Assembly (NCBI GenBank): GCA_028686345.1
Contig: JAQUCE010000002.1
Span: 42,735-106,734, forward strand
From: Kiritimatiellia bacterium
GTDB taxonomy: Bacteria; Verrucomicrobiota; Kiritimatiellia; RFP12; UBA1067
DNA length: 64,000 bases
Direction: 5' to 3'
A program made the position numbers and the translations under genes. Positions within the stretch are counted from its first letter, which is position 1. Every line of letters starts with the position of its first letter. Of this stretch, positions 1,741 through 62,815 are shown in pieces. The notes under the pieces were generated by a model. That model saw nothing but the letters and a program-made list of their open reading frames with translations. It searched no databases and was not told the origin of the DNA.

Positions 1741-1917
1741 CTGCCAAAAGAGTTTGTGTGATGGCCGCGAGGTCGTCGCCTGGCTGCGAACAGTGCCGAC
1801 GAGGACATCAGCACTCTACGAACGACCTTGCAATGTAAACGTACACTTTGTCGCAAGCTTTGTCGTAAACTTTGTTGGAGTGGAATGAACGCGCCACGTT
1901 GTTTTTGAGGTGAAAAT
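1741..1917 (+). repeat. Dispersed intergenic repeat family 4 copy (related copies at 12700-12945, 14599-14880, 40449-40620 reverse-complemented, plus fragments at 36200-36290, 36660-36720, 47940-48000, 48500-48600)
   Basis: Shared blocks seen by eye, e.g. ctttgtcgcaagctttgtcgtaaactttgttggagtggaatgaacgcg...cgttgtttttgaggtgaaaa and caatcgtcggtcaacatcgtcgcacag. Confidence 0.6.
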
Positions 1918-2110
1918 GTTTTCTGCAGGCAAGATGCTTGCACTACTCCATTATCACTTTTACGGTAACGTCTCAATAACACGCTTTGGAGCAGCCTTCC
2001 TCCTCCGCCAAGGCTACGGCGCGACAAGAAAGGCTGGACAACAAACCTTATGCAGCAGCCGTTTGTTGTTCACGCTTCAGCGGGCTCTTTGTTCTCTGAC
2101 TGGTTATTGA
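1916..2110 (+). repeat. Structured ~170-nt dispersed repeat family 2 copy (candidate small RNA or MITE). Other copies are at 19640-19830 (reverse strand), 40726-40890 and 44690-44870.
   Basis: Conserved core: gcaagcaagatgcttgcactactccattatc...ggagcagccttccgtcttcgcgcttcg.agctacgccggacacggaaaggctggacaacaaaccttacg..gcagccgtttgttg. It contains nested inverted repeats: gcaagca/tgcttgc, cagccttccgt/acggaaaggctg, caacaaac/gtttgttg. Confidence 0.6.
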
Positions 2111-2235
2111 AAAACTACCTTCGCGAGTAAAGAGGTCGGACAAGCAACGTAGGTCTGATTTCGAATCGGACATCTCCGGTTGTAAACCGGAGCTACAGAA
2201 GATCGGCATACTGCAACAGGTATGTGAAAAGCGCG

Positions 2236-2360
2236 TCCTAGGGTGTAGGGTTGCTTCTCAGAAGCAATTAGCGGATGCCAGCTGGTTGTTCGCCAAAGGT
2301 GCGCCAAAGGATTTCATGATCTTTGTTTGGTTCATCCGTCTTCAGGCTTCACAAAAGCTA
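2236..2360 (+). repeat. Dispersed repeat family 3 copy (related copies at 12380-12560 and 36420-36600 reverse-complemented; fragments at 48460-48500 and 55830-55880)
   Basis: Shared string gtagggttgcttctcagaagcaattagcggatgcc.g.tggttgttcgccaaagg...atctttgtttgg.tcatccgtcttc. Confidence 0.55.
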
Positions 2361-3109: not shown

Positions 3110-4336
3110 CTACTCCTTACGCAGCGCAACAACAGGATCCATGCGCGCGGCTCTCCAGGCGGGCAGGAAACTGGCGACCGTGCAGAACATGATCACCGAC
3201 ATCGCCACATTCACCACCTCAGAGGGGATGATCCGCCAGGGGATGGCATTCAGCCCATAGATCGCCTTGGGAAAGACCTCCACTCCCAGCATACCCAGCC
3301 CATTCACCATGGACTGCAAGTTGTACAAAATCAGGAAGGCCGCGACGATCCCCAGCAAGGTTCCGATCAGACACTGGATCCAGCCGTAAATCACAAAGGC
3401 GCCCATGACCTGGCGCGAAGAGAAACCCAGTGCCTTGAGCAGGCCGATCTCATCGGTTTTCTGCACTGTCAGCACAATCAAGGTGTTGGTGACACAGAAA
3501 ATAGCAACGACCGTGATAAACATCAGCAGAATCACCATCATATTTTTCTCAACCGCCAAAGCATTGAAAATCTGGCGGTCGATCTCCTGCCAGGTCTGGA
3601 CTTGAAAATTGGGTGTGATATCCTCAACCCGTCCCACAACCTTGTTGAAAAACTCAAAATTGGCGGGTTGTTCGGTCTTGAGGTGGATGGAATAGACCCC
3701 TGAGCTCATACCCATCAGGTCGCGCGTCACGGCCAGCGAGGTGATAATGTAACCAGAGTCAAAGTCACGCTGCCCTGACTCGAAGATCCCTTTGACAATC
3801 AAACGGTCGGGAAAGTAGACCTCATCCGTGGAAACCAGATTCATAGGCGAGTAGACGAGCAGATCGTCGCCAACGTCCACCCCAAGTTCCTGTGCCAGAT
3901 CAGTGCCCAGTACCACGGCGTCACCGGTCACATCAAACTCACCCGCGCGCATGTGCTCCAGTTGCATAATATTTTTCGCGCGCACCGGATCCACTCCGAT
4001 CAGCACTGGGGCCACCACGCGCCGGTGATTTTCCACCAGCACCCTGGTCTCCAGTGACGGTGAGGCGGCTTTGACCCCCTCCACCAGCTCCAGCCGGCGG
4101 CAGAGGGCCTCCTCATCTTGGATGACCTTGCCCGCGAACGCACGGATGATGATATGGGGTTTGAAATCCAGGATCTTCTCCTGCCACATGTCGCCAAAAC
4201 CGGTCATCACTGCGCGCACAATAATGATAATGGCCACACCCAGCACAACACCGAGTACCGAGATCAGCGAGACTACCGATGTGACAGTGCGCTTGGGTTT
4301 CAAGTATTTCAGCGCCAAAAAAAGCGAAAAAAGCAT
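3110..4336 (-). CDS. LolC/LolE family lipoprotein-release ABC permease (FtsX-like with MacB periplasmic domain)
   Basis: 408 aa with N-terminal TM1, a large periplasmic domain, then 3 C-terminal TM helices typical of FtsX/LolCE. It is adjacent to the LolD-like ATPase. Confidence 0.75.
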   Translation of the reverse strand: MLFSLFLALKYLKPKRTVTSVVSLISVLGVVLGVAIIIIVRAVMTGFGDMWQEKILDFKPHIIIRAFAGKVIQDEEALCRRLELVEGVKAASPSLETRVLVENHRRVVAPVLIGVDPVRAKNIMQLEHMRAGEFDVTGDAVVLGTDLAQELGVDVGDDLLVYSPMNLVSTDEVYFPDRLIVKGIFESGQRDFDSGYIITSLAVTRDLMGMSSGVYSIHLKTEQPANFEFFNKVVGRVEDITPNFQVQTWQEIDRQIFNALAVEKNMMVILLMFITVVAIFCVTNTLIVLTVQKTDEIGLLKALGFSSRQVMGAFVIYGWIQCLIGTLLGIVAAFLILYNLQSMVNGLGMLGVEVFPKAIYGLNAIPWRIIPSEVVNVAMSVIMFCTVASFLPAWRAARMDPVVALRKE

Positions 4337-4420: not shown

Positions 4421-4590
4421 CATCATTGCGGATATACTTCGCAATCATCCACCGCATAGCGGCGGATATACTTTACAATCATCCACCGCATAGCGGCGGA
4501 TATACTTTGCAATCATCCACCGCATAGCGGCGGATATACTTTGCAATCATCCACCGCATAGCGGCGGATATACTGTGCGTGGCTCTTAAA
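4421..4590. repeat. Tandem array of a 34-bp unit ATCCACCGCATAGCGGCGGATATACTTTGCAATC (4 full copies plus partials). Each unit holds the hairpin core CCGC-ATA-GCGG.
   Basis: The period-34 repeat is read directly from the sequence and is contiguous, with no unique spacers. The same 26-bp core recurs as inverted pairs at 14893-14961 and, diverged, at 51301-51375. Confidence 0.8.
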
Positions 4591-4612
4591 GGCCGAAGCA
4601 CATGCGTCCGTA

Positions 4613-6196
4613 TTACAGATTCCCGACATCAACCTCAATATCGCCGGTGTCGGTTGAGGTAGCCTCGATCTCCGCTTCAACCTGGACCGCTTCGCGGCTG
4701 GTGGTTGGCAGGTTGCGGTAGTATACCATCAATTGAAGCGCTACCAGACAGGTGTCCATCACCGGACGGTCGGTGTGCGCGTCAACGTTTTCCCACCACC
4801 CAATATCCTGATCTTTGCCGTTCATATCTTTGATCGCGTTTTTTGTAATCTTTTGGGCTTTGATATAAACCGGCTTCATCTCGGCGTTCCAATTGGCCCA
4901 GCGCTTACCGCCAGCATGAAATTTGGCTTGCGTTGCGTAGTAAAAATAGTACTGCGGGCTTCCGCCGACCTTATTCTCCTTATCAAACTCTCCGATACTC
5001 CACCCATCCATCAGATCCTGTGATTTGCGCACTGTGGTGTCGCTGCCAGCTCCCAGCAGCTGCAAACACAGCACACCCACGGCGGTCAATCCACCGCTGC
5101 CAGGCGAGGTATAACCGAACCCGCCATTCACAGCTGCATTGGCCTTAAAACCCTTAACCGAGTCCCGCATCGACTTGTCCAGCCCGTCAACATCGAGCCG
5201 CGCCAGTTTGCCTGCTTTAAGCGCCTGGGCACACCATCCCATATAAGAGGTGTCATCACGGTATTTTCCGCTCTCGGGGTCGACACCGGGGAAGAGTTTG
5301 TAGGTCCAGCCGCCAGTTGGGTGCTGTCCTTTGATAATCTGCTCCAGCGACTTTTCGGCGGCATACTTAACATTCGGATTCAGGGTCATGCCGTAGGCCT
5401 CGCACAATGCGTATGAGGCAATGGGGTGATCATAGTTGTTACCGCCGCCTGGCAGCAAACCGTTGTCGCGCTGTACCTTCATCAGATACTCCAGAGCCTT
5501 GCGCACAGTTTCGCCAAACTCCGGCGAGTCACCGGGTTTCTCTCCGTGAGCTAAGAAGGTCAGCACTCCCAGGCCGGTCATGGCGACCTTATTCTTGCTC
5601 CAGCTTCCATCTGCGTTCTGATTTTTCTTGAGCCAGCGCAGTGCCCGCATCACCGCCTCTTCGGTCTGTTTATCGCCGCCAAAACGGGCCAGTGAGGCGC
5701 CACGGGTGCCGGTATTACGTATATCGCCATAGATATTTTTAAGAATCACGGGACTTTTCACATTCATGACAGTGTCAAACTCCTGAGGCTGGGGGCTCAT
5801 GGGAGTGTCCTGCACATTCTCGACGCTCACATTCGGGGTGTCAACAGGCACGTCAATCTCGATCTGCTCCATATCTTCAGGCGGTTTCTCCAGGACTTCA
5901 ACGTCCTCCAGCTCCTGCATCTCCTCAGCCTCCATGATCTGCGTCTCAATAATCCGGTCATCGGTGACCGAAGCATTCGACAACACAACCAGCAACAGAA
6001 CCGAGAGCAGCGGCAACAGAACAGCTGAAATCGGGGCGGAGAGGCGCTGAATTTCAATCATCGCCACTTTATAAGCTCTGGAGTCACGCGGCGCTTTTAA
6101 GCCGGTGAAGAGCTTTTTCATCCGCTTGATGTAGGACTCATTGCCATACATCTCGGCGATCTCTGCGAGATTCGCATCTACCTCATTGAAATCCAT
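4613..6196 (-). CDS. TonB-topology membrane-anchored protein with a C-terminal prenyltransferase/squalene-oxidase (QW-motif) alpha/alpha-toroid repeat domain
   Basis: 527 aa with a ~50-aa cytoplasmic N-terminus, a single TM (ISAVLLPLLSVLLLVVLS), an acidic/Pro-rich linker (EEMQELEDVEVLEKPPEDMEQIEIDVPVDTPNV...PQPQEF), then QW motifs (LRWLKKNQNADGSW, IIKGQHPTGGWTY, MKVQRDNGLL). RBS AAGGGTGG lies before the ATG at 6196. Confidence 0.6.
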   Translation of the reverse strand: MDFNEVDANLAEIAEMYGNESYIKRMKKLFTGLKAPRDSRAYKVAMIEIQRLSAPISAVLLPLLSVLLLVVLSNASVTDDRIIETQIMEAEEMQELEDVEVLEKPPEDMEQIEIDVPVDTPNVSVENVQDTPMSPQPQEFDTVMNVKSPVILKNIYGDIRNTGTRGASLARFGGDKQTEEAVMRALRWLKKNQNADGSWSKNKVAMTGLGVLTFLAHGEKPGDSPEFGETVRKALEYLMKVQRDNGLLPGGGNNYDHPIASYALCEAYGMTLNPNVKYAAEKSLEQIIKGQHPTGGWTYKLFPGVDPESGKYRDDTSYMGWCAQALKAGKLARLDVDGLDKSMRDSVKGFKANAAVNGGFGYTSPGSGGLTAVGVLCLQLLGAGSDTTVRKSQDLMDGWSIGEFDKENKVGGSPQYYFYYATQAKFHAGGKRWANWNAEMKPVYIKAQKITKNAIKDMNGKDQDIGWWENVDAHTDRPVMDTCLVALQLMVYYRNLPTTSREAVQVEAEIEATSTDTGDIEVDVGNL

Positions 6197-6216
6197 AGTG
6201 TTCCACCCTTCTTTTG

Positions 6217-6621
6217 TCAGATACTAAAGATCGACAGGTTGGTCATGCCATTCTTGTTGCAGATATCCAACGACTGCACCAGAAAGGCATGCGGTGAGTC
6301 GGCGGTGCATTTAATGACAATCATCGCCGTCTTGCTCAGGTCGGCGTAACGTTTGATCCTGCGGTCAAGCTCCACTAAAGAGACAGGCCGTCCATTCAAA
6401 ATAAACCCCTGGGGCGCGACCTGGATTGTGATCAATTCGGGCTGATTCTCTTTTCGCGCTCTTGGATCCGCAGCTGGACGAGCTGCGGAAAGTTTTGACA
6501 GGATGTCCTCCTGTTTAATTGTCACAATAAAGAAAATCAACAACTGAAAGACAACATCAATCATTGGTGTCATGTCCAGTTTCGGGGTCTCTCCTTTATT
6601 TTGTTTTCTTACATAAGCCAT
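6217..6621 (-). CDS. exbD: ExbD/TolR family biopolymer transport protein
   Basis: 134 aa, LDMTPMIDVVFQLLIFFIV signature. Confidence 0.85.
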   Translation of the reverse strand: MAYVRKQNKGETPKLDMTPMIDVVFQLLIFFIVTIKQEDILSKLSAARPAADPRARKENQPELITIQVAPQGFILNGRPVSLVELDRRIKRYADLSKTAMIVIKCTADSPHAFLVQSLDICNKNGMTNLSIFSI

Positions 6622-12012: not shown

Positions 12013-12239
12013 ACTGTGCTTTATACTCTAACCGTGGCTTTTGGTCAATTTCAAATCATCACTTTTTTCTAAAAAGTGCATACAAGTGTAGTCAGCCATG
12101 GTATTTTACACCTTAATATAAGCTTACGTGGCATAGCTGCTGCCCCAAGCGCGCCGAAATAGCTGAGGTCAGCGATCTGAGATAGAGGCCGCTGCAAAAA
12201 AAGTGGGCTAACTTAAAGGCCAAAAGCATCGGGTGGCGC

Positions 12240-12950
12240 TCTGCGAGCGATATGAAAGATGGGCCGCCGCTGGTAGAGCGGCATTTTGCAGCAGACCCGT
12301 GAAAGGCTCGCCCCGGGGTGTAGTAGCCGCTCTATGAGCGGCATTTTGCAGCAGACCCGTGAAAGGCGCGCCCCGGGGTGTAGGGTTGCTTCTCAGAAGC
12401 AATTAGCGGATGCCGGGTGGTTGTTCGCCAAAGGATTTCACTATCTTTGTTTGGCTCATCCGTCTTCGTCCCGCAACCCGGCTTCGCCCTCAAGCGCTGC
12501 TGCGTCGTGGGATGGCGGAACTACGACGGACAAGTTCCGCCAACCCTACACGTTTCCACTGTGATGAAGCTTGCATGTCGTACGACAGGCGCGAGTACGC
12601 GAATGCGCGAATGCGCGAGTTAAAGAGATGGAGACTTTTATGCGACGCAACGCAGCTCCGATTTTCAATCGGACATGTCCGGCTGGAAACCGGAGCTACT
12701 GCGGTCGGACATCTCCGGTTTGCGATAGCGGCGGCGACGATGCTGGTTGACAAGCCCGCGCATGACCCCAATCGTCGGTCAACATCGTCGCACAGTATCG
12801 TCGGCCGCAGCGGCAGGGCACGGCCTCCACCGCGCCGCCTGAACGACCTTGCAGCGCAAGCGCAAACTTTGTCGTTAACTTTGTCGGAGTGGAGTGAGGT
12901 TTTTCAAAAACGTGCGTGAAAAACAACGCAGCGCACTCTCCGTCCCCTCT
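12240..12950. repeat. Mosaic repeat block: a 63-bp direct duplication (12268-12392), then a family 3 copy (12380-12560), then a family 4 copy (12700-12945)
   Basis: Direct comparison with the copies at 2236-2360, 36420-36600, 1741-1917 and 14599-14880. ORF-track ORFs inside this block (e.g. 12410..12919) are judged spurious. Confidence 0.6.
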
Positions 12951-13229
12951 GTGCCTCAATGGCTAAACAAAATTCGCGGCAAAGGGCCAAAACTCTCTCA
13001 TATCCACGCTGTTCGTCCACTTTTGCTGTGCCAACCGCTGCGAAAATTACGCAGAATCAGGGTCGTTTAACTCAATTTATCGAGTTTTAGCCGCCGAAAC
13101 TCTGGAATTTCGAACAAAATGCAAAAAAAAACCTTATTTATGAATTTCTGGTTGCAGTAAACCCCGATTTTAGGTAAATTTGATGATGTTGTTAAATCTA
13201 TTTACAGGAATAAATTCAGAGGTATTGAC

Positions 13230-14366: not shown

Positions 14367-14526
14367 GTCGTTTCCCTTACTAGTGCTGGCCGCACTGCTT
14401 TTCCTGACCTTATTCGCAGGATGTATCCAGGATAGCCCGAATGATACCGATATCCCTTGGGCCGGGCCAGCGAGCTGGGAGGGCACCATGCCACTGCCCG
14501 GCAGTGTCAGAGACCGGTATCAGTAG
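14350..14526 (+). CDS. Possible small lipoprotein (58 aa) overlapping the 3' end of the upstream gene by 17 nt
   Basis: Manual translation gives MSYFSKSFPLLVLAALLFLTLFAGCIQDSPNDTDIPWAGPASWEGTMPLPGSVRDRYQ, with lipobox LFAGC. It is below the ORF-track length cutoff. Confidence 0.3.
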   Translation: MSYFSKSFPLLVLAALLFLTLFAGCIQDSPNDTDIPWAGPASWEGTMPLPGSVRDRYQ

Positions 14527-14598
14527 CCTGCCGCAGCAGCTAGTCAGGCAACCAAATGAGTTGCGCAACACGCCAATGATCAGGCGCGCAGTGTGTCA

Positions 14599-14880
14599 GC
14601 CGCACCTTCGGTTTACGATAACGGCGACAATGCTGACCGACGAGCCCCCGCATGATCCCAATCGTCGGTCAACATCGTCGCACAGCATCGTCGTTCGATG
14701 TCGCTGGCAGAGCGGCTGCTACACATGCGCTGCACTGCGGAGTGCAAGAGAAAATCAGTGCCTGTCCCCAGAAAATCCCTAATCTCAATCTTAATCATAA
14801 GCGTAAATTTTGTCGCAAGCTTTGTCGTTAACTTTGTCGGAGTGGAATGAACGCGCTACGTTGTTTTTGAGGTGAAAAAT
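14599..14880 (+). repeat. Dispersed repeat family 4 copy
   Basis: Shares cggtttacgata.cggcgac.atgctg...caatcgtcggtcaacatcgtcgcacag...tttgtcgcaagctttgtcgttaactttgtcggagtggaatgaacgcg with the other copies. Confidence 0.6.
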
Positions 14881-14892
14881 CTTAGCGGTGAA

Positions 14893-14961
14893 AAATGGGC
14901 ATCCACCGCATAGCGGCGGATATACTGAAAGCAACACAGTATATCCGCCGCTATGCGGTGG
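14893..14961. repeat. ~66-bp near-perfect palindrome built from two inverted copies of the 26-bp core ATCCACCGCATAGCGGCGGATATACT (the same core as the 4421-4590 tandem array), ~60 bp upstream of the ROK kinase gene
   Basis: Read directly: catccaccgcatagcggcggatatactg-aaagcaacac-agtatatccgccgctatgcggtggatg. Confidence 0.8.
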
Positions 14962-15019
14962 ATGATTGTGAAACAAGCCGCAATAAGGCCCGATAGACAA
15001 CTTTCAGGAAAGAATATTT

Positions 15020-19546: not shown

Positions 19547-19639
19547 AAAGTATCACCCGCATCAGGCAAACACAACTAAAAAAGAGTAAAAGGCTTGGGC
19601 CATGTTTTAGGCGCAGGCACAAATGCGAATTAGTCGCTT

Positions 19640-19830
19640 AGGCGGGCAACCAAAAGAGTTTGTGAACAACAAAACCGCTGCGTAAGGTTTGTTGTCCAGC
19701 CTTTCCGTGTCCGGCGTAGCTGCGAAGCGCGAAGACGGAAGGCTGCTCCAAAGCGGATTATTGAAAAGTGACCCCTAAAATGATAATGGAGTAGTGCAAG
19801 CATCTTGCTTGCGGAAAGCAACGCGCCAGC
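19640..19830 (-). repeat. Structured repeat family 2 copy (reverse orientation)
   Basis: The reverse complement matches the 1916-2110 and 40726-40890 copies over ~170 nt. Confidence 0.6.
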
Positions 19831-36037: not shown

Positions 36038-36059
36038 GGGTTAGGGGTTAGGGGTTAGA
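36025..36059 (+). repeat. Heptamer microsatellite (GGTTAGG)x5 (equivalent to TTAGGGG) overlapping the ndvB stop codon
   Basis: Read directly: ggttaggggttaggggttaggggttaggggttaga. Confidence 0.8.
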
Positions 36060-36720
36060 GGATAGGGGTGTGGTAGTCGAAGGTAGACCAAGGGCATCGA
36101 AGGTAGTCGAAAGAAGCCGCTTGCTGCAAAATGCCGCTGGTAGAGCGGCTACTACACCGAACGACAACCCGTGCATCCCGCAGTGCAGCGCATATGTAGC
36201 AGTCGCTCTACCAGCGACATTGGTTGACGATGCTGTGCGACGATGGCGGTGGACGATTGGGATCATGCGCGCTCTTCCACCAGCATCGTCGCCGCTATCG
36301 TCAACCAAAGGTGCAGCGGATCTCAGTAGGTCCGGTTTCCAACCGGACATGTCCGATTGGAAATCGGAGCTACGTTGCTCCCGCACCAACGCGCGCTTGC
36401 GCCTGCCGCGCGACATGCAAGCTTCACTCAAGTTGAAACTGTAGGGTTGGCGGAACTTGTCCGGCGTAGTTCCGCCATGCCACGGCGTAGCCTCGCTAGC
36501 GGGCGAAGCCGGGTTGCGGGACGAAGACGGATGAGCCAAACAAAGATTATGAAATCCCATGATGCGCCTTTGACAAACAACCACCTGGCATACGCAAATT
36601 GCTTCATAGAAGCAACACTACACCCTAGGGCGCGTTTTTCACGAACTAAATCATGATCCTAGTCAAGCTTCGGCCGACGATGCTGGGCGACGATGTTGGT
36701 GGACGATTGGGATCACGCTA
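36060..36720. repeat. Mosaic intergenic repeat block (family 4 fragments, family 3 copy in reverse orientation)
   Basis: 36420-36600 is the reverse complement of 12380-12560. 36200-36290 and 36660-36720 match the family 4 core gcgacgatg.tggttgacg...caatcgtcc. ORF-track ORFs here are judged spurious. Confidence 0.55.
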
Positions 36721-36726
36721 CAAGCT

Positions 36727-40414: not shown

Positions 40415-40448
40415 TTTCGTTTTCTATGCCCATTTTTCATTTCTAAGA

Positions 40449-40620
40449 TTTTTCACCTCAAAAACAACGCAGCGCGTTGATTCCACTCCGACACAGTTTG
40501 CGACAAAGTTAACGACAAAGTTTACACTTGCGCTGCAAGGTCGTTCGTGGGGCGCGGTGGAGGCAGAGCCCTACCGCTGCGGCCGACAATGCTGTGCGAC
40601 GATGTTGACCGACGATTGAG
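40449..40620 (-). repeat. Dispersed repeat family 4 copy (reverse orientation)
   Basis: Reverse complement of the 1741-1917 / 14599-14880 cores. Confidence 0.55.
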
Positions 40621-40725
40621 AGCTTGCGGGGGCCTAATCCTAATCATTATCCTAATCCCAATCCTCGTCTTTGTTGAATGAAGTACCTCAAGCTTCCAGC
40701 TTGAATGAAAATATCTTCTGCAAGC

Positions 40726-40890
40726 AAGATGCTTGCACTACTCCATTATCGCTTTTACGGTCACGTCACAATAATCCGCCCTGGAGCAGCCTTCCGTCTT
40801 CGCGCTTCGTAGCTACGCCGGACACGGAAAGGCTGGACAACAAACCTTACGGGGCAGCCGTTTGTTGCTAAAGCAGCGGTCTCTTAATCA
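40726..40890 (+). repeat. Structured repeat family 2 copy
   Basis: gcaagcaagatgcttgcactactccattatcgcttttacggtcacg...ggagcagccttccgtcttcgcgcttcgtagctacgccggacacggaaaggctggacaacaaaccttacggggcagccgtttgttg. Confidence 0.6.
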
Positions 40891-40920
40891 CAAACTCTTT
40901 CGGTTGCCCGGCTAGCTGCT

Positions 40921-42246
40921 TTAGTCCTCTTTGAGAATACCATGGCTTTTGATATCTCTCATGGGAATTGTCTGGCTGACACCTGGCGCGGTTTCAAGGC
41001 GGATCCCCTCTTCGCTGATAAATTCGATCACGCCCTTGTAGTAAGAGCGGGTGGTGGTAACCTCATAGTTGGGAATGAACTGCCGCACTAGTTTAATCTG
41101 CAGGGCGGTGGTTTGATCCTGGATGATGGTGAATGGGCGTTTCTGGGGGGCGTATCCCTGGCGGATGATCTCAACCTCGTGTTCACCTGCCATGATGTCG
41201 CCAATCGACAGCGGGTTTGAGACAGCGCTGGTGCCAGCTTTGTCAGCCTCAGTGATGCCGGCCTTTTTGCCATTCACCAGGATCGTGGCGCCTGCGGGGG
41301 CGGTGATGATGGTGAGAATGCCTGTGTTGCCGGTCAGCCGGAACTCCTCTGTGCGGGAGGTGCCCTTCTCAACCTCGATGTCGCGCGCCATCGGGGTGTG
41401 GCCAGCGAGTTCGACCCGGATGCGATAGCTTCCCGGCGTGATATCAACAAAGTTATGGGGACTTTCACCCTTGAACTCATTGCCAAGATAGACCCGGGCA
41501 CCCTCTGGGATCGTGACAATTTTCAAGGAGCCGGGCAGTGGTTCGAGTTGAATGTTGACCTGCTGCCGCTCTCCGGCAGCCAGCGCGATATCACGCAGGT
41601 GGGGGGTGTAGCCATCCTGCCTGACCTCCAGTTTGACGCTGCCGCCAGGGATGCGGTCGATCTCGCACGGAGTTCTGCCGCGTGTGATGCCGTTGATCTG
41701 CACCTCCGCGCCTGCGGGTTCGGATGTGATATTAAGGGTGCCCGAGTCAGCGACCAGCGCGACCACCTCCTTATGGGGGGTGCGGCCATTGAGGGTAAGA
41801 TCAATCTCTTTTGTCTGAAAGCCGGGCAGCGAGATTGAGAGCCGGTGGTCACCCGGACGCAAGGTGGTGACCAGCAGGGGGGTGCTTCCCAGGGAGACAC
41901 CTTTGGTCGTCACCTCAGCCCCGGCAGGCTCGGAGTCGACCAGCAGCAGCCCTAGCTCAGGTGTGAGCATCAGTTTAACATTGCGGGTTATGCCTGGCTG
42001 CAGGGTGGTGCTCTCGAAGCTGTCGCTGTATCCCTCATGGGAGGCGCGGATCAGATATCTACCGGCTGGCAGATCAGTGATGGTCAGGGGCGTTATGCCG
42101 CGTTCCCTGTGGTTGACAGTGATTTCAGCCCCCTCCGGATCAGAGTGAATTATGAGGCAGGTGGCTGGCTCCTTGGAACTCTGGGCAAAGCAGGTGGAGA
42201 GCGCAAAGAGAGTCGCGATAACGGGAAGCATTTTGTATTTAATCAT
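40921..42246 (-). CDS. Secreted PEGA-domain repeat protein
   Basis: Signal peptide MIKYKMLPVIATLFALSTCFA. Several ~70-aa repeats carry the PEGA-like cores DPEGAEITVN, EPAGAEVTTKG, EPAGAEVQING, IPEGARVYLGN, APAGATILVNG. Confidence 0.7.
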   Translation of the reverse strand: MIKYKMLPVIATLFALSTCFAQSSKEPATCLIIHSDPEGAEITVNHRERGITPLTITDLPAGRYLIRASHEGYSDSFESTTLQPGITRNVKLMLTPELGLLLVDSEPAGAEVTTKGVSLGSTPLLVTTLRPGDHRLSISLPGFQTKEIDLTLNGRTPHKEVVALVADSGTLNITSEPAGAEVQINGITRGRTPCEIDRIPGGSVKLEVRQDGYTPHLRDIALAAGERQQVNIQLEPLPGSLKIVTIPEGARVYLGNEFKGESPHNFVDITPGSYRIRVELAGHTPMARDIEVEKGTSRTEEFRLTGNTGILTIITAPAGATILVNGKKAGITEADKAGTSAVSNPLSIGDIMAGEHEVEIIRQGYAPQKRPFTIIQDQTTALQIKLVRQFIPNYEVTTTRSYYKGVIEFISEEGIRLETAPGVSQTIPMRDIKSHGILKED

Positions 42247-43622: not shown

Positions 43623-44546
43623 TTAAAAGAGATGCTCCAGGGTTTGGCGCAGAATTGGGCCGAGAAGGATAATAAACACAGCGGGAAAAATGAAAAGCAT
43701 CAGGGGGCCCAGCATCTTGACCGGGGCCTCGTTGGCCAGTTTTTCCGCCCGGTCAAAGCGGCGTGACCGGATCTGGTCGGATTGAATGCGCAGGATCGGG
43801 CCAATGCCGACACCCAGTTCATCGGCTTGAATCAGCGCGTGAGTGACGGATTTCAGCTCTGCCAGGTTGACGCGCTGGGCCATGTTTTTGAGGGCAATTC
43901 GTCGGGGGATACCAACCTGAATCTCGCGCGACATGCGGATCAGCTCCTCGTTCAGCGGATCGAGTTTACGGCGCTGGCAGTTACGCTGCAACGCACTCAT
44001 GAAATCCATGCCAGCCTCAACCGAGAGGGTCAGCAGATCCAACACAAAGGGCAGCGATTTTTGAATGGAGCGGTGGCGCAGGCTCAGAGCCCGCTTCAGC
44101 CAGAAGACCGGGTAGATGTAAAAAACAATCAGCCCCAGCACTGCGAGATACAAGGTGTTGCCTGCCAGCAGCGACTCAGGATTGAGCGTATCCAGCAGCT
44201 TGAGGGTCGCAATCCAGAATGATCCGAACACAATCGGCATCAGAATCTTGAGTGCCACAAACTCGCGCCCTGAGAGCAGCCCTTCAAAACCAGCTGCAAT
44301 CAACTGGCTTTCACCTTGATCACGCGAGCCTTTAAATGACGGTCGCATGATAAAGGTGTTCAGGTTGGGCACAAACGGCAGCATCAGACGGAACATCAGC
44401 GGCAGCCGCCGCTCCTGCTGCCGCCCATCCGCTAAGGTCACATAGGTGATCTGCTTGGCAGCATTAAAGCAATACCACGCAATGCCCGCTGCGCAGAGAA
44501 ACCAGGTTGCCACAGCGCCATACCAAAAAATATCAGCCAAATTCAT
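43623..44546 (-). CDS. Type II secretion system F-domain (TadB/TadC-like) inner-membrane protein, single GspF domain
   Basis: 307 aa with a 3-TM layout and the GspF-type core LLTLSVEAGMDFMSALQR...NEELIRMSREIQVGIPRRIALKNMAQR. Confidence 0.6.
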   Translation of the reverse strand: MNLADIFWYGAVATWFLCAAGIAWYCFNAAKQITYVTLADGRQQERRLPLMFRLMLPFVPNLNTFIMRPSFKGSRDQGESQLIAAGFEGLLSGREFVALKILMPIVFGSFWIATLKLLDTLNPESLLAGNTLYLAVLGLIVFYIYPVFWLKRALSLRHRSIQKSLPFVLDLLTLSVEAGMDFMSALQRNCQRRKLDPLNEELIRMSREIQVGIPRRIALKNMAQRVNLAELKSVTHALIQADELGVGIGPILRIQSDQIRSRRFDRAEKLANEAPVKMLGPLMLFIFPAVFIILLGPILRQTLEHLF

Positions 44547-44689
44547 GTAGCAATAATATCATTATGAATATTGAGTGTCACGCGCATTCTGATAGTTTCA
44601 TCGGCATTAAAAATACAGTGATAATTCGGCTGCGCCGAATTATTCTTAATTGCTGCTCTCTCAACTCCTGTCGCGAAAAACAAGAAGTT

Positions 44690-44870
44690 CAGATACCGAT
44701 CTTCATCGCTTTGGAGCAGCCTTCCGTCTTCGCGCTTCGCAGCTACGCCGGACACGGAAAGGGTGGACAACAAACCTTACAGGGCAGCCGTTTGTTGTTC
44801 ACACTTCCCTGTCACGGCGTAAAAGCGAAGTTCGGAGCCGGAAGCGTGCTCTTTATTCTCTGGCAGGTTA
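44690..44870 (+). repeat. Structured repeat family 2 copy (lacks the 5' hairpin module)
   Basis: ggagcagccttccgtcttcgcgcttcgcagctacgccggacacggaaagggtggacaacaaaccttacagggcagccgtttgttgttcac. Confidence 0.55.
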
Positions 44871-44992
44871 TTGAGAAGTTACCTTTGTGTTAGTGCGCGA
44901 GTTAAAGAGATGGTGGTGTTGCTCCCGCACAAAAGGCACGACCTTTTTACTCGCGCACTGCTTCACTCCGCGCCAGGCGCGGATCTAGAACC

Positions 44993-47207: not shown

Positions 47208-47278
47208 AACACCCCGAGAGTTTACAGGGTTGGCGTTGGATATGCAAAAGAAAAAAAGTGATTTCAATTGCATATACC

Positions 47279-47292
47279 AGAACATTTGTTCT
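47279..47292. promoter_or_regulatory. Putative LexA operator (SOS box) of the GAAC-N4-GTTC type: AGAACATTTGTTCT, 12 bp upstream of the lexA ATG, in the dnaX-lexA divergent intergenic region
   Basis: The inverted half-sites AGAAC/GTTCT are read directly. Their position relative to the lexA start fits autoregulation. Confidence 0.5.
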
Positions 47293-47303
47293 ACTATATC
47301 CCC

Positions 47304-47894
47304 ATGGCACCTAAATCAAAGATCACCGCGCGAATTCCTGTACTGCAAGAGTATATGCGGCGCACAGGCAGAGCCCCGACGCTGAGGGAGCTCTGCGAGC
47401 TGTTTAATGTTAAGTCCAAAAACTCCGCCGCTTTAATGGCTCAGGGCTTTGTGGCAGCTGGCATTGTGACTAAAACCGCGAGCGGGCGGCTCTGCGCCCC
47501 GCCCCGCACAGGACGCGCGCTGCGTCTTTTAGGCAGCGTTACCGCTGGGTTTCCCTCGCCAGCTGAGGAGTCGCTGCTGGACACCGTCACGCTGGAGGAG
47601 TATCTGATCACCCGGCCGGATTCAACCTTCATGCTGCGCGTGGATGGTGATTCGATGATCGATGCCGGCATCCTGCCGGATGACATTGTGTTGATTGAAA
47701 GGGGGCGCGCCGCTGGCAACGGTGACATTGTAATTGCCTGTGTGGATGGCGAATGGACGATGAAGTACTACCATAAAACAGGGAAAGATGTGCGCCTTGA
47801 GCCGGCCAACCGCAACTACGCCACCATCCGCCCGCGGCGCTCACTCACGGTCGAGGGTGTGGTCTGCGGTGTTGTGCGCAAGCTGGGAGGGTAA
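47304..47894 (+). CDS. lexA: LexA repressor (S24 peptidase with an N-terminal winged-helix DNA-binding domain)
   Basis: N-terminal HTH-like LQEYMRRTGRAPTLRELCELF, C-terminal S24 motifs (VDGDSMIDAGILPDDIVLIE...KLGG), ~197 aa. Confidence 0.8.
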   Translation: MAPKSKITARIPVLQEYMRRTGRAPTLRELCELFNVKSKNSAALMAQGFVAAGIVTKTASGRLCAPPRTGRALRLLGSVTAGFPSPAEESLLDTVTLEEYLITRPDSTFMLRVDGDSMIDAGILPDDIVLIERGRAAGNGDIVIACVDGEWTMKYYHKTGKDVRLEPANRNYATIRPRRSLTVEGVVCGVVRKLGG

Positions 47895-48289
47895 AGCGTT
47901 GGCGCCGCTGACGCTGGGGCAACGTAGCTTTGATTTCCAACCGGGCCACTGACGTTCGGCTGCGCCTTCGGTTTACGATGGCGGCGACGATGCTGGTTGG
48001 CGTTTCCTAAGGGCGTAATTTTTAATCGTAATTCGCAGGCACTGCCACCAGGTCACCATGTCACCATGTCACCATGTCAAAAAACAGCTTGCAGCCTGGA
48101 CTGCGGAGCAACCTGCAAGAGATAAGCCGGAGATCATTTCCATACGCTCTTCGATACCGGCCCCGGCCCCGACTCCAAGTTATGGGCAAAGCGGCAGCCA
48201 AGTGACAAGCGAATCGAAGCTGTAGGGCGGCTGGCCTTGAACGCGCCGGCGGACGACAGTACAGCGCAATGCGAGCCGTAAGCTGCCAG

Positions 48290-48600
48290 GCGATTGACCT
48301 TAAACGCGCCAACCGCGGTCACGGCCCGCGGCTACAGTGCTGCGCAAGCAGAAAGCAACGCGCCAACCGCGGTCACGGCCCGCGGCTACAGTGCTGCGCA
48401 GGGCGGATTGCAAGTTGTTTGCAAACCTTGTAGTATCGGTGTAGTAGCCGCTCTATTTGTCGGGCATAGTTCCGCTTGCGGGACGACATCTGACGAGCGG
48501 CATTGGTTGACGGTGATGTGCGGCGATGCTGGTTGACGATTCTCGCATGGTGCCAATCGTCCACCAACATCGTTGCCGCTATCGTCAACCAGAGGCCTCG
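48290..48600. repeat. Intergenic repeat cluster: a 57-bp direct duplication (48302-48345 / 48359-48402) with CCGCGG palindromes, then family 3 and family 4 fragments. A caccatgt x3 microrepeat lies at 48051-48078.
   Basis: Read directly: cgcgccaaccgcggtcacggcccgcggctacagtgctgcgca occurs twice. Confidence 0.55.
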
Positions 48601-48681
48601 CCTCCATAGGTAAATATTGGTGATCTTTAGATCAGTATAAGAGATATTTTACAAAAAAATGAGTTATAGAAAGGAAGAACC

Positions 48682-49956
48682 ATGACCGAGCAGTGCACCA
48701 TGCTGCATGTTGATGCAGACGGCTTTTTCGCCTCAGTGGAGCAGTCGTTAAACCCTGCCTTGCGCGGCCGGGCGGTTGTGACCGGCGCGGAGCGCGGGAT
48801 TATTGCGGCTGCCAGCTATGAGGCCAAAGCCCTTAAGATTGGACGCGGCATGCAACTGCATGAGGCCAGGGCGCTCTGCCCCAGCCTGGTTGTGCTGCCA
48901 TCTGATTACGAGGCCTACAGCATTTACTCCCGCCGAATCTTCAATATTCTGCGCCGCTTCACCCCCTGCGTTGAGGAGTACTCGATTGACGAGGCCTTCG
49001 CCATTATCGACACAGCCCGCAGCTCTCCTGAGGAGCTCGCCGCCGCGATCCGACAAGCGGTGCGCGAAGAGCTGGGCCTGACAGTCTCGGTCGGGGTCAG
49101 CCTGACCAAAACTCTGGCAAAGCTCTGCTCGAAATTCCGCAAACCGGACAATCAGACGATCCTGCGGCACGAGCATATTCCCGTGATGCTGAAACGCACG
49201 CCCATTGATAAGGTGTGGGGCATCGGCGCGGCGAGCACGGCCAAACTCACCCGACTCGGAGTTCACAGCGCACTGGACTTTATCGGGATGGAGGAGAGCC
49301 AAGTTCGGAAGCTGCTGCACAAGCCGGGCCACGAAAGCTGGCATGAGCTGCGGGGCGCGCGCAGGTTTCGATTGGAGCAGAACCCTCAGCGCAGCTACGA
49401 CTCTATGATGAAGGGCCATACCTTCGCGCCCCCCAGTGGCGATCCGGATTTCATTTTCGCGGAGGCGCTCAACAATCTGGAGCGGGCGTTGGCAAAGCTG
49501 CGTCGCCACCAGCACCGGTGCGGCGAGATCGGCCTGTCGCTGCGCCTCAAAGATTATGATCACCGATCCGCCGCACTGCGGATTGCGCCGCTCTCGGACA
49601 GCAACGCCGCGCTGGTACCGCGCCTGCGCCAGCTCTTTAACGCGCTGTTTGAAGATGGGGCGATCTACCGCTCGACCAATGTCTGGCTGGCAGAGCTGGA
49701 GCCGCCGCACCTGCGTCAGCCCGACCTCTTTGACAACAGCGTTGCGAAGCAGGCGCGCCAGGAGCTTGACCGCAAGGTTGACCAGCTAAACCGGCAGTTT
49801 GGCGGCCAGAGTGTAAAAGCCGCGGCGCTGCTCAATCTCAAAGACAAGCCGTCCCACGCCCGTGACGCGCAACCCGAGCGCTACGGGAGGTTGTTCAAAG
49901 GGGAGAGCCGGATCCGGCACATCAACATCCCGCGGCTGACGCTGGGTGAGGGGTAG
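48682..49956 (+). CDS. Y-family translesion DNA polymerase (UmuC/DinB-like)
   Basis: LHVDADGFFASVEQ (catalytic Asp motif), EYSIDEAF, SVGVSLTKTLAKLCS, 424 aa. Confidence 0.8.
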   Translation: MTEQCTMLHVDADGFFASVEQSLNPALRGRAVVTGAERGIIAAASYEAKALKIGRGMQLHEARALCPSLVVLPSDYEAYSIYSRRIFNILRRFTPCVEEYSIDEAFAIIDTARSSPEELAAAIRQAVREELGLTVSVGVSLTKTLAKLCSKFRKPDNQTILRHEHIPVMLKRTPIDKVWGIGAASTAKLTRLGVHSALDFIGMEESQVRKLLHKPGHESWHELRGARRFRLEQNPQRSYDSMMKGHTFAPPSGDPDFIFAEALNNLERALAKLRRHQHRCGEIGLSLRLKDYDHRSAALRIAPLSDSNAALVPRLRQLFNALFEDGAIYRSTNVWLAELEPPHLRQPDLFDNSVAKQARQELDRKVDQLNRQFGGQSVKAAALLNLKDKPSHARDAQPERYGRLFKGESRIRHINIPRLTLGEG

Positions 49957-55692: not shown

Positions 55693-55990
55693 GGTCATCG
55701 TGAAACATCGTGCAACGCACAGGCAGGCAACCAATTTTTGACAGGATAACAGGATTAACTTGATAAATTATCTCTCACAGAGTCGCAGAGGGCACAGAGA
55801 GCAAAAGTGTATACTCTGAGAACTCTGTGCCTTCCCCGTCATGGCGTAGTTCCGCTTGCGGGACGAAGCCTGATGCGAGAGATAGAAAACGTGCATAAAA
55901 AACAAGAATATGAATGATAGTAGTACAGAGCAGTATTATTTCTATAAACCCTGTGCATTGATCTTAAAAAACCGCTTCAGGGCACAAAAA

Positions 55991-56083
55991 AAGCCTGTAT
56001 TCATTGGGTTAAATCAACAAATACAGGCTTTAAGATGGTAGCGGGGACCGGATTTGAACCGATGACCTTCAGGTTATGAGCCT
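55991..56083. other. attL: ~93-bp direct repeat duplicating the terminator plus the 3' 48 nt of the tRNA-fMet gene. This is the left boundary of the integrated element.
   Basis: aagcctgtattcattgggttaaatcaacaaatacaggctttaagatggtagcggggaccggatttgaaccgatgaccttcaggttatgagcct matches 62694-62786 with 3 mismatches. Confidence 0.8.
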
Positions 56084-56236
56084 AACACCATACCACAGCC
56101 GCACCCCTATAAACAAAGGCTTTCGTTTTCTTGAAATATCCATTTGTGCGTTTATTTGTGTTTTGTGTTTGTGTTTTATTCCAGTTCATGCCATAGTGTA
56201 ACCATGTGTTAAACCAATAACGAAAGCGGGTTAATT

Positions 56237-57823
56237 ATGGCACTTGAAATCAGGAAAAACACCAAAGGCGACATTATAGGGCACTGGTACGGAGCTTATA
56301 CCGATGCCAACGGGAAGCGGCGAATTGTGCCACTGTCAGAACAGATACCACCGAACAGTTACCCCGGCGCAGTGAAGCAGACCGGAAGCCCATTGTTTGA
56401 AGCAAGCAGGGCACGGGCTGAAAAGGAGCTGGAAGAGATCAGAACCGAAGCAGCGCAGCGGGGACGGGTTGACCACTTGACCGAGCGGTTAATTCAGAGT
56501 AAGACAGGGCGCAAGGTTGACTATGTGAAGCTGGCAGACTTGCCGGCCAAATGGCGCAAGGTAGGACGCAGCCGAAAACCGTCTAAAGAGTGGATGCAGA
56601 ACTGTGACGGCATTTTCAGCAAGTTTGCAGAATCGGTACCATGTCAATTCTTGTATGAGGTGACCAGCGACCAGGCCGCCGTCTATCTGGAGACACTAAA
56701 GCAGCGGGTGACCCTGAAAACAGCCAACGGCACACTTCAACTATTGAAGGCCGCCTTCACTCGCTTTCTACCAACGGGAGCGGTAAACCCGTTTAATGAT
56801 CTAATCGGAGGGAGCGACCCCGACACCGTCCACCGCCGTCCCTTCACAGCTCCGGAACTTACACGGCTATTTGAAGCCGCTAGCAGTGACAGCTTTATGC
56901 ACCCCTTGATAGTTTGCGCAGCTTGCAGCGGACTCAGGCGCGGGGACGTATGCCGCCTAACATGGGATAGCGTCAACTTAACCGAAGGCGTGTTATCCAT
57001 TAAGCGAACCTCTAAGACGGGCGCGGGGGTTGAGATACCAATATTCAAGCCGTTGCGGGAAGTCCTAGAAGCCGCCTTATCAGAAAAGGACGAAGGGCAA
57101 AGGTATGTTTTCCCAGAAGCGGTTAAAATGCTGAAAGCGAACCCGGACGGATTGACATGGAGGTTTAAGAAGATAGCAGCCGCCGTAGTTTGTCCAGAAG
57201 GCGACCCAGACAGCCCACAGGCCGCAACCCTTGCCGATGTATTGCCGGAAGTCTTGAAGGCCGTAGCGGGGACGCTGGACGGCAAGCGGCGCGACAGGGT
57301 GACGGATTGCCTTGAACGGTACGCAGACGGGCAAAGCATACGCGACATTGAAAAGGAGACCGGGCGTTATCGCTCCCAGGTATCAAGCGACTTGCACCAA
57401 GCAGAAGAGATCAGCGGGTTTTTGTTTATGCCGTTGCCTGCTGGAGGGGAAAGCAGCAAGGCACTAATCAATAGAGCGACACGCGGCACAAAAAAGGGAC
57501 GGGCGCGGCGGTCTTCAACCGTTGATTGGCACTCGCTCAGGACTACATGGGTAACGCTGGCACTGTCAGCCGGGGTACCGATGGAGATATGCCGACGGGT
57601 GACAGGCCATAAAACGGTTGAGACTGTACTAACTCACTATTTCAGGCCAGGGCGCGACCACCTGAAGGCGGTATTAGGGGAAAAGCTACCGGACGTTTTA
57701 ACGGGCAATAATAACACCCTACCAGCAGCCGGGCCGGACGTTTCAGCACTTGCGGCGCAACTGGCAAATTTGACAAGTTTTGAACGGGAGAAAATAAAAG
57801 AGATATTAAATAATCAGCCTTAA
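56237..57823 (+). CDS. int: Tyrosine-type site-specific integrase (large, 528 aa)
   Basis: Catalytic R (LRRGDVCRLTWDS), HxxR (WHSLRTTWVT), H...Y (GHKTVETVLTHYF). Located next to the tRNA att site. Confidence 0.85.
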   Translation: MALEIRKNTKGDIIGHWYGAYTDANGKRRIVPLSEQIPPNSYPGAVKQTGSPLFEASRARAEKELEEIRTEAAQRGRVDHLTERLIQSKTGRKVDYVKLADLPAKWRKVGRSRKPSKEWMQNCDGIFSKFAESVPCQFLYEVTSDQAAVYLETLKQRVTLKTANGTLQLLKAAFTRFLPTGAVNPFNDLIGGSDPDTVHRRPFTAPELTRLFEAASSDSFMHPLIVCAACSGLRRGDVCRLTWDSVNLTEGVLSIKRTSKTGAGVEIPIFKPLREVLEAALSEKDEGQRYVFPEAVKMLKANPDGLTWRFKKIAAAVVCPEGDPDSPQAATLADVLPEVLKAVAGTLDGKRRDRVTDCLERYADGQSIRDIEKETGRYRSQVSSDLHQAEEISGFLFMPLPAGGESSKALINRATRGTKKGRARRSSTVDWHSLRTTWVTLALSAGVPMEICRRVTGHKTVETVLTHYFRPGRDHLKAVLGEKLPDVLTGNNNTLPAAGPDVSALAAQLANLTSFEREKIKEILNNQP

Positions 57824-58004
57824 ACCGCCTTAAGTTTTAATGCCGTTTCATCACGTAACCCTTGCATTTGCAGGGGTTTGTTTGTTTCTAGCAATAATCG
57901 GTTTGTGATCGTGTGACCCCTTCATGCCGTAGAAAGCCGCCTAAATAGCGTTCACCATTTTTACACGTTGGCTATAGGTGAACGTGTAACGGTAATGAAG
58001 CCGC

Positions 58005-58304
58005 TTGCATGAAACGAAAGGCGACCATATGACCACAGAGAACCGAATACAGGCGATACTAATAGCCGACCCCGTCAAGCTGGCACAGATTGACAGCATA
58101 CTGACAGGTACGCACACAGAAGCAGCACCAAGCGACCGCCGTTTGTTGACCAAGACGGAAGCCGCTAAAACGCTAGGCATGTCACGTCAAACGATTTGGC
58201 GCATGATTAAAGAGGGACGCTTGCCCGTGATCGAGATCCGGCGCGGACAGCACCGCATACCAAGCGCGGCACTAACTTCAATGCTTCAGGAGGTGAACCA
58301 GTGA
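58005..58304 (+). CDS. Excisionase / AlpA-like HTH DNA-binding protein
   Basis: LLTKTEAAKTLGMSRQTIWRMIKEGRLPVIEIRRGQHRI matches the Xis/AlpA (HTH_17) family pattern. It follows the integrase. Confidence 0.6.
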   Translation: MHETKGDHMTTENRIQAILIADPVKLAQIDSILTGTHTEAAPSDRRLLTKTEAAKTLGMSRQTIWRMIKEGRLPVIEIRRGQHRIPSAALTSMLQEVNQ

Positions 58305-58464
58305 AGATCGTTATTCCTCAAATTCTTTGCAAATATCGACACTTGAAAACAGCCGCTTGCCATAATCTAAAACGCTGTAGCGGTTGCAGCCGCGTTTTAC
58401 GGGAGCATGAAAAGGGCTGGACTTGCTCAGCCTGTCGCAACTCTCAGAGAGGGGCCGCGAAATG
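58301..58464 (+). CDS. Possible 54-aa Cys-rich (Zn-ribbon-like) protein translationally coupled to both neighbours
   Basis: The GTG start overlaps the xis stop (GTGA). Its TGA stop overlaps the primase ATG (ATGA). Translation gives VKIVIPQILCKYRHLKTAACHNLKRCSGCSRVLREHEKGWTCSACRNSQRGAAK, with cysteines arranged C..CxxC...CxxC. Confidence 0.3.
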
Positions 58465-60993: not shown

Positions 60994-61131
60994 CAGTCAG
61001 CCGCAAACAGCAAAAAGGTACTACCCCCAAGAACCGAAGACTAGGTAAACTAGACGATACTTGAAAAAAACATCTTGTAACGCTGTATAGAAACACTCAT
61101 ACGGAACAACAAAACGAAAGGCAAAAGAAAA

Positions 61132-61578: not shown

Positions 61579-61633
61579 GAAAAACCGAGATGACAAATGG
61601 GACAATATCAAATAGCCCGCTATCGGTTTTGAC

Positions 61634-62149: not shown

Positions 62150-62394
62150 AAGATCAAAGCATCACTTTGTAAGTAAATCTCAAACACCACAGCAAAGCGG
62201 CGTTATCTCATTGCAGGGATAGGGCCGCCTTTTTGCTTTAAAGCGTGACACTCTAACAGGCCATTTTTAAGCGATTTAAGGCCATAGCAGTTTAAAGCAT
62301 ACGAACACCCGCGCCGGAACCAGCAGCGCGACCAGCGCAGCGACTCGCATTAGAATAAATCAAAGATCAGAACTCGCAGCAAAGCGGCGATATT

Positions 62395-62738: not shown

Positions 62739-62815
<77 letters not shown>

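Follow-up and report, generated by a model that had tools for sequence, protein, structure and literature searches.

Structured intergenic repeats in a Kiritimatiellia genome are probably worn copies of a miniature inverted-repeat transposable element

Why does a strongly folded sequence recur at four separate places between the genes of one Kiritimatiellia bacterium? The stretch analysed here, referred to as the window, comprises 64,000 nucleotides of contig JAQUCE010000002.1 (assembly GCA_028686345.1, positions 42,735 to 106,734). A sequence-only reading of this DNA had described a conserved, highly structured element of ~170 nt in four copies (1916-2110, 19640-19830 in reverse, 40726-40890 and 44690-44870) that share three nested stems, and had offered two candidates for it, a small RNA (sRNA) or a miniature inverted-repeat transposable element (MITE). 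Our analysis favours the latter: with a probability of about 0.84, the four repeats are MITE copies, worn or broken and each joined to other small palindromic repeats, and they do not represent a new RNA gene.

The four repeats are indeed found at these places. Allowing for one mismatch, a 23-nt core motif (GAAAGGCTGGACAACAAACCTTA) is found at four window sites (2028, 19683 on the minus strand, 40827 and 44757), compared to none in 100 shuffles. A profile search using nhmmer, with a profile built from 22 copies, returned the same four and no other window matches at E≤1 (1965-2118, 44707-44882 and 40760-40886 on the plus strand and 19661-19772 on the minus strand), with E values from 3e-48, that of the first copy, to 2.5e-32. 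All four are intergenic as had been stated, each lying between Pfam-supported genes: ExbD and an ABC ATPase, a fucose pyrophosphorylase-kinase and a PATR autotransporter, HrpB and a PEGA-domain gene, and T2SS-F and an AOX-like gene. Their orientation is mixed, as three copies, including the one at 1916 that had been called antisense, are antisense to both neighbouring genes and the copy at 19.7 kb is sense. By contrast, the proposed single unit of ~170 nt dissolved upon alignment. The window copies are collinear over their middle ~90-110 nt only and run into different sequence on both sides, so they are not four copies of one such unit; what had been taken for it is a GTAG-tagged palindrome joined to the 5' two-thirds of a MITE. 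The three stems do exist, but the first of them (gcaagca/tgcttgc) is present in three of the four copies and missing from the one at 44.7 kb.

The anatomy of the unit emerged from related copies. Scans with the core motif as the query found eight loci in a set of one genome per species, all in Kiritimatiellia bacterium SO_2017_CLC_139 (JBAYXX01), and 19 loci in metagenomes, all from the source metagenome of this metagenome-assembled genome (MAG); viral contigs contained no copy. At the DNA level, the matches between these loci (numbered below with the prefix L) and the window consist of repeats only. In total, 24 non-redundant, dispersed copies are known from two genomes, four in the window and 20 in the related MAG. 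Aligned on the core motif, they define a non-coding unit of 123 bp, the first and last 17 bases of which are perfect terminal inverted repeats (TIRs; GTAACTTCTCAATAACC / GGTTATTGAGAAGTTAC). The simplest form reads GTAACTTCTCAATAACCCGCTTTGGrrCAGCCTAAAGGCTGGACAACAAACCTTACGCAGCAGCCGTTTGTTGTTCACGCTTCAGCGTGCTCTTTGTTCTCTGGCCGGTTATTGAGAAGTTAC. It contains three internal hairpins, termed H2 (CAGCCT/AGGCTG), H3 (ACAACAAAC/GTTTGTTGT) and H4 (CACGC/GCGTG), and measures 122-123 bp, or 154-158 bp when a loop carries an insert. Eleven copies have both TIRs, at a spacing of 122-158 bp, and the TIRs are complementary at 17/17 positions in L011, L016 and L023. Throughout the 295 kb examined, matches to the TIR with up to three mismatches fall at MITE copies only.

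Directly outside the TIRs lie duplications of 8 bp. They are exact (8/8) in L016 (TAAAGAAG), L023 (AAAGGAAG) and L011 (ATATGTTT), and match at 7/8 positions in L020 and L006 (AAAyCATC and CAyTTTTC), which makes five clean duplications among the 11 two-ended copies. These five have flanks unrelated to one another, and the chance of a single 8/8 flank match is ~1.5e-5. TIRs that match at 17/17 positions together with 8-bp target-site duplications identify the unit as a MITE, one of the two candidates offered at the outset; the same combination had been named beforehand as the finding that would refute an RNA. The unit is not long enough for a protein-coding gene, and the open reading frame (ORF) overlapping copy 1 has no Pfam match. 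Insertion duplicates 8 bp of the target, and we propose that a DDE transposase acting in trans would bind both inverted repeats and then cut and paste the unit. No host function is indicated for the MITE.

Each window copy departs from this template in its own way. Copy 1 (1965-2118, plus strand) is the only one with both ends and possesses H2, H3 and H4. Its 5' TIR (1965-1981, GTAACGTCTCAATAACA) and 3' TIR (2102-2118) are both degenerate (12/17 complementary), and there is no target-site duplication (3/8 match). The flanks of copy 1, a repeat termed module A on the left and CTT.G... on the right, are common to five MAG copies, indicating that this composite was propagated as a block or through recombination. 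Copy 2 (19661-19772, minus strand) keeps a 5' TIR with three mismatches (19756-19772) and lacks the 3' end; it stops after H3 at ..GTTGTTCAC, in a microhomology fusion to a fragment of a repeat termed module R (~19633-19661). Copy 3 (40760-40867, plus strand) has a degenerate 5' TIR (40760-40776) and also lacks the 3' end, as it stops within the 3' arm of H3 (..CCGTTTGTTG; the end is also written ..CGTTTGTTG) and is joined at a short homology to module R. The latter (40868-40924, plus strand; CTAAAGCAGC...GCTGCTTTAG) is an unrelated long-hairpin repeat that abuts the stop codon of the opposite-strand PEGA-domain gene. Copy 4 (44707-44882, plus strand) has neither a 5' TIR nor module A and is preceded by another repeat; its 3' TIR (44866-44882) is perfect (GGTTATTGAGAAGTTAC). 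These states suggest that copies 2 and 3 lost their 3' ends by microhomology-mediated fusion to another repeat, that copy 4 lost its 5' end, and that copy 1, which has no duplication, suffered mutation of its TIRs. The four window copies are relics, and they are probably immobile now.

The first of the three stems (gcaagca/tgcttgc; GCAAGCAAGATGCTTGC), found in three window copies, lies outside the MITE and belongs to module A, a separate dispersed repeat. At 1911-1964 (plus strand) module A abuts the 5' TIR of copy 1, with the hairpin GCAGGCAAGATGCTTGC followed by ACTAC; at 40706-40759 (plus strand) it adjoins copy 3, and its hairpin, a GTAG-tagged palindrome, adjoins copy 2 at 19791-19814 (minus strand). 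Read on the opposite strand, module A is a GTAG followed by a palindrome, with gtagTGCAAGcatcttgCTTGCA at 40741 (minus strand) and 19791 (plus strand). It has ten non-redundant copies in the 295 kb, eight of which abut the 5' TIR of a MITE and two of which stand without one, and it is absent at the clean MITE insertions. Moreover, perfect window hairpins of at least 6 bp are preceded directly 5' by GTAG more often than by any other tetranucleotide, with 24 occurrences compared to a maximum of 14 for the others and 0-10 for the permutations of GTAG. Module A fits the definition of a GTAG-tagged repetitive extragenic palindrome (REP), namely a palindrome of 20-40 bp with an unpaired GTAG at one end that is repeated in the genome (PMC3733652); such REPs were reported in several phyla, including the Planctomycetes-Verrucomicrobia-Chlamydiae (PVC) group (PMC3733652, Di Nocera et al. 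2013). It resembles them as a hairpin with a 6-7-bp stem and an unpaired GTAG at one end, and palindromes of this type are enriched in the window and clustered in mosaic spacers. The MITE core differs from these REPs and from their composites, the bacterial interspersed mosaic elements (BIMEs), in having TIRs and duplications, so it is no REP.

The other two stems belong to the MITE itself. The third (caacaaac/gtttgttg) is H3, and the second (cagccttccgt/acggaaaggctg) is H2 (CAGCCT-A-AAGGCTG) with an imperfect palindrome of 32-36 nt in its loop, which extends the short hairpin to the long stem described earlier. This mini-palindrome is of the type CTTCGC..GCTACGCC.GACA, with a core of CTTCGC-N4-10-GCTACGCC-N1-3-GACA (30-36 nt). 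Two variants of it are known: v1 (TCCGTCTTCGCGCTTCGCAGCTACGCCGGACACGGA) is carried by window copies 2-4 and by four copies of the MAG, and v2 (TCCTCCTTCGCCAAGGCTACGGCGyGACAAAGA) is that of window copy 1 and of four copies from the MAG. The H2 loop is empty in nine copies, filled with v1 in seven and filled with v2 in five. Within the window, v2 (TCCTCCTCCGCCAAGGCTACGGCGCGACAAGA) sits at 1998-2029 (plus strand) in the H2 loop of copy 1, between CAGCCT and AAGGCTG, and v1 sits in the H2 loops of copy 2 (19704-19739, minus strand), copy 3 (40793-40828, plus strand) and copy 4 (44723-44758, plus strand). The two variants explain why the copy at 1916 had been described as having a different interior within the same outer stem. 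That stem is kept and the interior differs, but the interior can still be aligned at ~70% to those of the other copies; the supposed structure-preserving variation is an exchange of two small palindrome variants inside the loop of a hairpin and not a case of compensatory change in an RNA helix.

The mini-palindrome fills three different host hairpins, each of which is also known in an empty state with a small loop, according to a profile of loop sequences: H2 and H4 of the MITE, and the unrelated GTAG-tagged hairpin TTGCTTC-N3-GAAGCAA. The H4 loop is filled in reverse orientation in L012 and in window copy 4, where a second mini-palindrome (44808-44842, plus strand; reverse complement ..CTTCGCTTTTACGCCGTGACAGG) lies between CACACTTC and AGCGTG. 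The TTGCTTC-N3-GAAGCAA hairpin is filled by a 31-nt palindrome in L028 (9057-9104) and L012 (4394-4441), and is empty, with a 3-nt loop, in five copies (window 2251-2267, 12386-12402 and 36599-36615; L002 5634; L015 6016); alignment revealed a clean 31-nt insertion relative to two of the window copies. Pairs of MITE copies may be nearly identical outside the loop and yet differ within it: L003 (v1) and L004 (v2) share 97.4% identity, L006 (v1) and L016 (empty) 97.6%, and L002 (v2) and L026 (empty) 95.9%. The loop content thus fails to track backbone similarity, which indicates that the loop was gained, lost or exchanged repeatedly.

We tentatively consider, as a possibility that we rate well below even odds, that the mini-palindrome is itself a minute mobile element that inserts specifically into the tips of pre-existing DNA hairpins, in one or the other orientation, and thereby makes them longer. 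The loop content could alternatively result from gene conversion among copies, or from a loop-length polymorphism as known for REPs, since short loops coexist with long self-complementary loops in some REP families (PMC3733652). The empty and filled loops described here resemble this coexistence; the difference is that one loop-filling sequence sits in three different host hairpins. When the H2 hairpin including the v2 mini-palindrome was compared by blastn to 72,556 plasmids, all matches were at chance level (E 0.2-0.7). A wide spread of CTTCGCC..GCTACGGCG.GACAAG strings across phyla found no support in this search and is not relied on. These nested palindromes are the only unusual part of the system and the only one that could yield a new mechanism; if the tip-landing idea were true, a micro-element that targets hairpin tips without a known enzyme would represent a new kind of bacterial repeat dynamics.

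The repeats as a whole might instead be taken for a REP/BIME mosaic, in which a REP-associated tyrosine transposase (RAYT, IS200/IS605-like), in place of a DDE transposase, moves single-strand hairpins. Like palindromes described in PVC bacteria (PMC3733652), module A and several of the palindromic modules around it bear a GTAG tag. The excess of GTAG before perfect hairpins agrees with such a mosaic, as do the intergenic regions, which are assembled from modules of this kind, and the mini-palindrome, an imperfect palindrome of REP size. However, the MITE core carries 17-bp TIRs and 8-bp target-site duplications, and single-strand transposition of the Y1/HUH type is not known to make such duplications. 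In addition, no RAYT gene is found among the Pfam-annotated genes of the window. The mosaic is therefore an improbable account of the four repeats, although it may be correct for module A and the mini-palindrome, but not for the core.

A family of structured sRNA or cis-regulatory RNA genes, whose three hairpins would be kept by selection and whose copies would be paralogs, is equally doubtful or slightly more so. It would agree with the intergenic position of all copies, their identical hairpins and the pairing of 93.6% of the cells in proposed pairs, and the folding z-scores reach -2.8. These scores (-1.4 to -2.8) are nevertheless similar on both strands, as expected of DNA palindromes. A search against Rfam 15 yielded only tRNAs at the gathering score, and nothing overlapped the copies even at E≤1. 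Covariation was analysed on the 22-copy alignment with a 48-pair structure comprising the TIR stem, H2 with its v1 extension, H3 and H4, in which part of H2 and H3 is invariant because the retrieval motif forced it. Among the 48 pairs, 18 never vary, eight show variation confined to one side, and 20 depart solely through broken pairs, including six of the nine pairs of H3, so that stem variation mostly breaks pairs. Two pairs change on both sides, a number equalled in 83 of 500 shuffles. One of these changes, G-C to U-A between v1 and v2, is a single event; the other, in the H4 hairpin of the L020 copy (copy at 3492-3613), where H4 reads CACCC-TTTA-GGGTG instead of CACGC-TTCA-GCGTG, is the only true compensatory double change within one copy.

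Promoter and terminator scans over the four copies detected no more than chance, the one 9/12 sigma-70-like match spanning the junction of module A and the TIR in copy 2 only. In L001, a solo 43-nt MITE fragment (4464-4517; the 3' arm of H2 plus H3, 97.7% identical to copy 1) is placed immediately behind a stop codon and ahead of the T-run TGATTTTTT; it resembles a terminator, and this single MITE remnant may have been co-opted as one. The window copies moreover share no ends and are oriented inconsistently with respect to the neighbouring genes, and TIRs with target duplications explain their spread without an RNA function. The sRNA candidate thus received no support.

Several observations weigh against the MITE interpretation of the window repeats. 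All four window copies lack a clean duplication, and it is the sister genome that supplies the evidence on TIRs and duplications. In six two-ended copies the flanks are the same (module A to the left, CTTTGTTTCCCC.. to the right) and only 2-4/8 positions match as a duplication; these shared-flank copies spread within a larger composite or by duplication and recombination, not by simple transposition. Copies have a mean identity of ~88% whether they are compared inside the window, inside the MAG or across the two, which implies that most copies are old. The compensatory double change in the L020 copy (G-C to C-G) is a hint that hairpin H4 is under some constraint. Finally, Pfam scans found no transposase of any type in the window, and a TIR search found no autonomous element with these ends near any copy and no longer TIR-bounded element in the 295 kb, where 44 mid-sized locus ORFs were not scanned for transposases. 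Despite the old age of most copies, three insertions still have perfect TIRs and duplications. The even identity within and between genomes would fit a MITE family that is older than the split of the two species or was exchanged between them.

The remaining possibility, that the copies were never mobile and are leftovers of segmental duplication or recombination among repeat-rich spacers, can draw on the truncation of copies 2-4 at microhomologies and their fusion to other repeats, on the same module A junction in eight copies and on the mismatch between loop content and backbone, which suggests gene conversion, but it is very unlikely because such events would not place exact or near-exact 8-bp duplications outside perfect TIRs in five copies with unrelated flanks. 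Three further classes were rejected: integron attC sites, as the copies occur in both orientations (an integrase was sought no further than that of the tRNA-Met island described below); CRISPR arrays, as there is no regular spacing; and a template/variable repeat pair of a diversity-generating retroelement, as the copies are intergenic and number more than two.

Returning to the MITE, its ends offer a lead, not a demonstration, as to what may have moved it. The termini (GTAAC...) and the 8-bp duplication fit the signature of the IS66 family of insertion sequences (ISs), that is, GTAA termini and a duplication of 8-9 bp. The TIRs of the IS66 member ISDge4 (ISBst12 group) are GTGACTACTCAGCA / GTAACTGCTCAGCA, and its direct repeat measures 8 bp (PMC12898284); the inverted repeats of other IS66 elements open with GTAAGCG or GTAACCG (PMC12888890), and IS66 members captured in Paracoccus gave 8-bp repeats (PMC3281130). 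The MITE TIR GTAACTTCTCAATA matches the right inverted repeat of ISDge4 (GTAACTGCTCAGCA) at 11 of 14 positions, a similarity noticed after the fact. Unlike the ISBst12-group elements, the MITE has no transposase gene, and as no autonomous partner was found, the assignment depends on the end sequence and the duplication length only. Duplications of 8 bp are also made by IS6, IS21, IS256 and ISL3, which have other termini. An IS66-family transposase is a candidate mover of the MITE family, which is probably derived from IS66.

The spacers that harbour these repeats have themselves changed among relatives. The spacer between the PEGA-domain gene and HrpB, which contains copy 3, is 507 bp long in the window and consists entirely of repeats. 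It measures 12 bp in L029 (GCA_036681025.1), the HrpB of which is 78% identical to that of the window, and 1130 bp in L028, a Kiritimatiellia MAG relative and possibly the sister MAG (HrpB 88% identical), where it holds other window-shared modules and lacks this MITE. As the whole spacer differs among relatives, it provides no clean pair of filled and empty sites. L029 is essentially free of these repeats, which indicates that the repeat build-up is specific to a narrow clade; in this clade, stacks of small repeats have widened gene spacers from ~12 bp to 0.5-1.1 kb.

Several window spacers are built almost wholly of shared small modules in both orientations (1621-2376, 12013-13229, 14367-15019, 36038-36726, 40415-40920 and 47895-48681), among them GACGATG-rich units and the GTAG-tagged hairpins GTAGTAGCCGCTCTATGAGCGGC, GTAGGGTTGCTTCTCAGAAGCAA and GTAGCTCCGGTTTACAACCGGAG. 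One such spacer places ~790 bp of repeat modules between the genes of a LexA-like repressor (47268-47894) and a Y-family DNA polymerase (48682-49956). ORFs of 99-178 residues cross the repeat-filled spacers (1728-2027 and 36048-36584 on the minus strand, 44507-44893 and 12410-12919 on the plus strand); the three that were tested have no Pfam match, and these ORFs are probably artefacts that gene callers would list as hypothetical proteins. Stacked small repeats therefore matter for the assembly of MAGs and for gene calling, as spurious ORFs cover them.

The window contains further repeats and a small integrative island. A tandem array at 4428-4597, upstream of a gene for a 527-residue protein, comprises about five 34-bp units (GCGGATATACTTTGCAATCATCCACCGCATAGCG), each with the palindrome CCACCGCATAGCGGCGG; an inverted copy of the unit lies 10 kb away (14935-14972). 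The Rfam family mir-7563 matches nearby at 14900-14964, in a weak and symmetric hit (E 0.007, far below the gathering score) that reflects a palindrome close by. The regions 192-1575 and 5178-6576 are a paralogous duplication of an ExbD gene and the end of its upstream gene, with ~75% identity at an offset of ~5 kb, giving the window two related ExbB/ExbD-type clusters. At 55988-62815, an integrative island of low GC content (46-51%) lies between a partial tRNA-Met (56039-56108) and an intact one (62739-62815), and its ends carry a 108-nt direct repeat with 93% identity (55988-56095 / 62691-62798). It encodes a tyrosine integrase (56237-57823), an AlpA/HTH_17-type regulator (58005-58304), a D5-type primase-helicase (58423-60993) and a small terminase subunit (61634-62149), a gene set that resembles that of a phage satellite. 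Degenerate TTTGTGTGA / TTTGTGT repeat arrays (62396-62619 and 56143-56180) adjoin both ends of the island beside the tRNA-Met repeat.

Altogether, a candidate sRNA is removed and a MITE family is added for Kiritimatiellia, in which a full-text literature search found no paper naming both MITEs and a term beginning with Kiritimatiell. It is a new family of a well-known type of element, and as such ordinary selfish DNA. Like Correia of Neisseria, RUP of Streptococcus pneumoniae, Nezha of cyanobacteria, MITEAba12 and MITEPsy1/2, it is non-coding and within the range of ~100-160 bp, has TIRs, target duplications of fixed length and internal hairpins, and is dispersed in intergenic copies of both orientations, of which truncated or nested ones are frequent. 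Its sequence is unrelated to theirs, and its host belongs to an uncultured Kiritimatiellia lineage. The target duplication is 8 bp long, compared to the TA duplicated by Correia and the 9 bp duplicated by MITEAba12. It further differs from the known bacterial MITEs in that no parent IS is identified here, and in that many of its copies bear a small palindrome within the loop of an internal hairpin.

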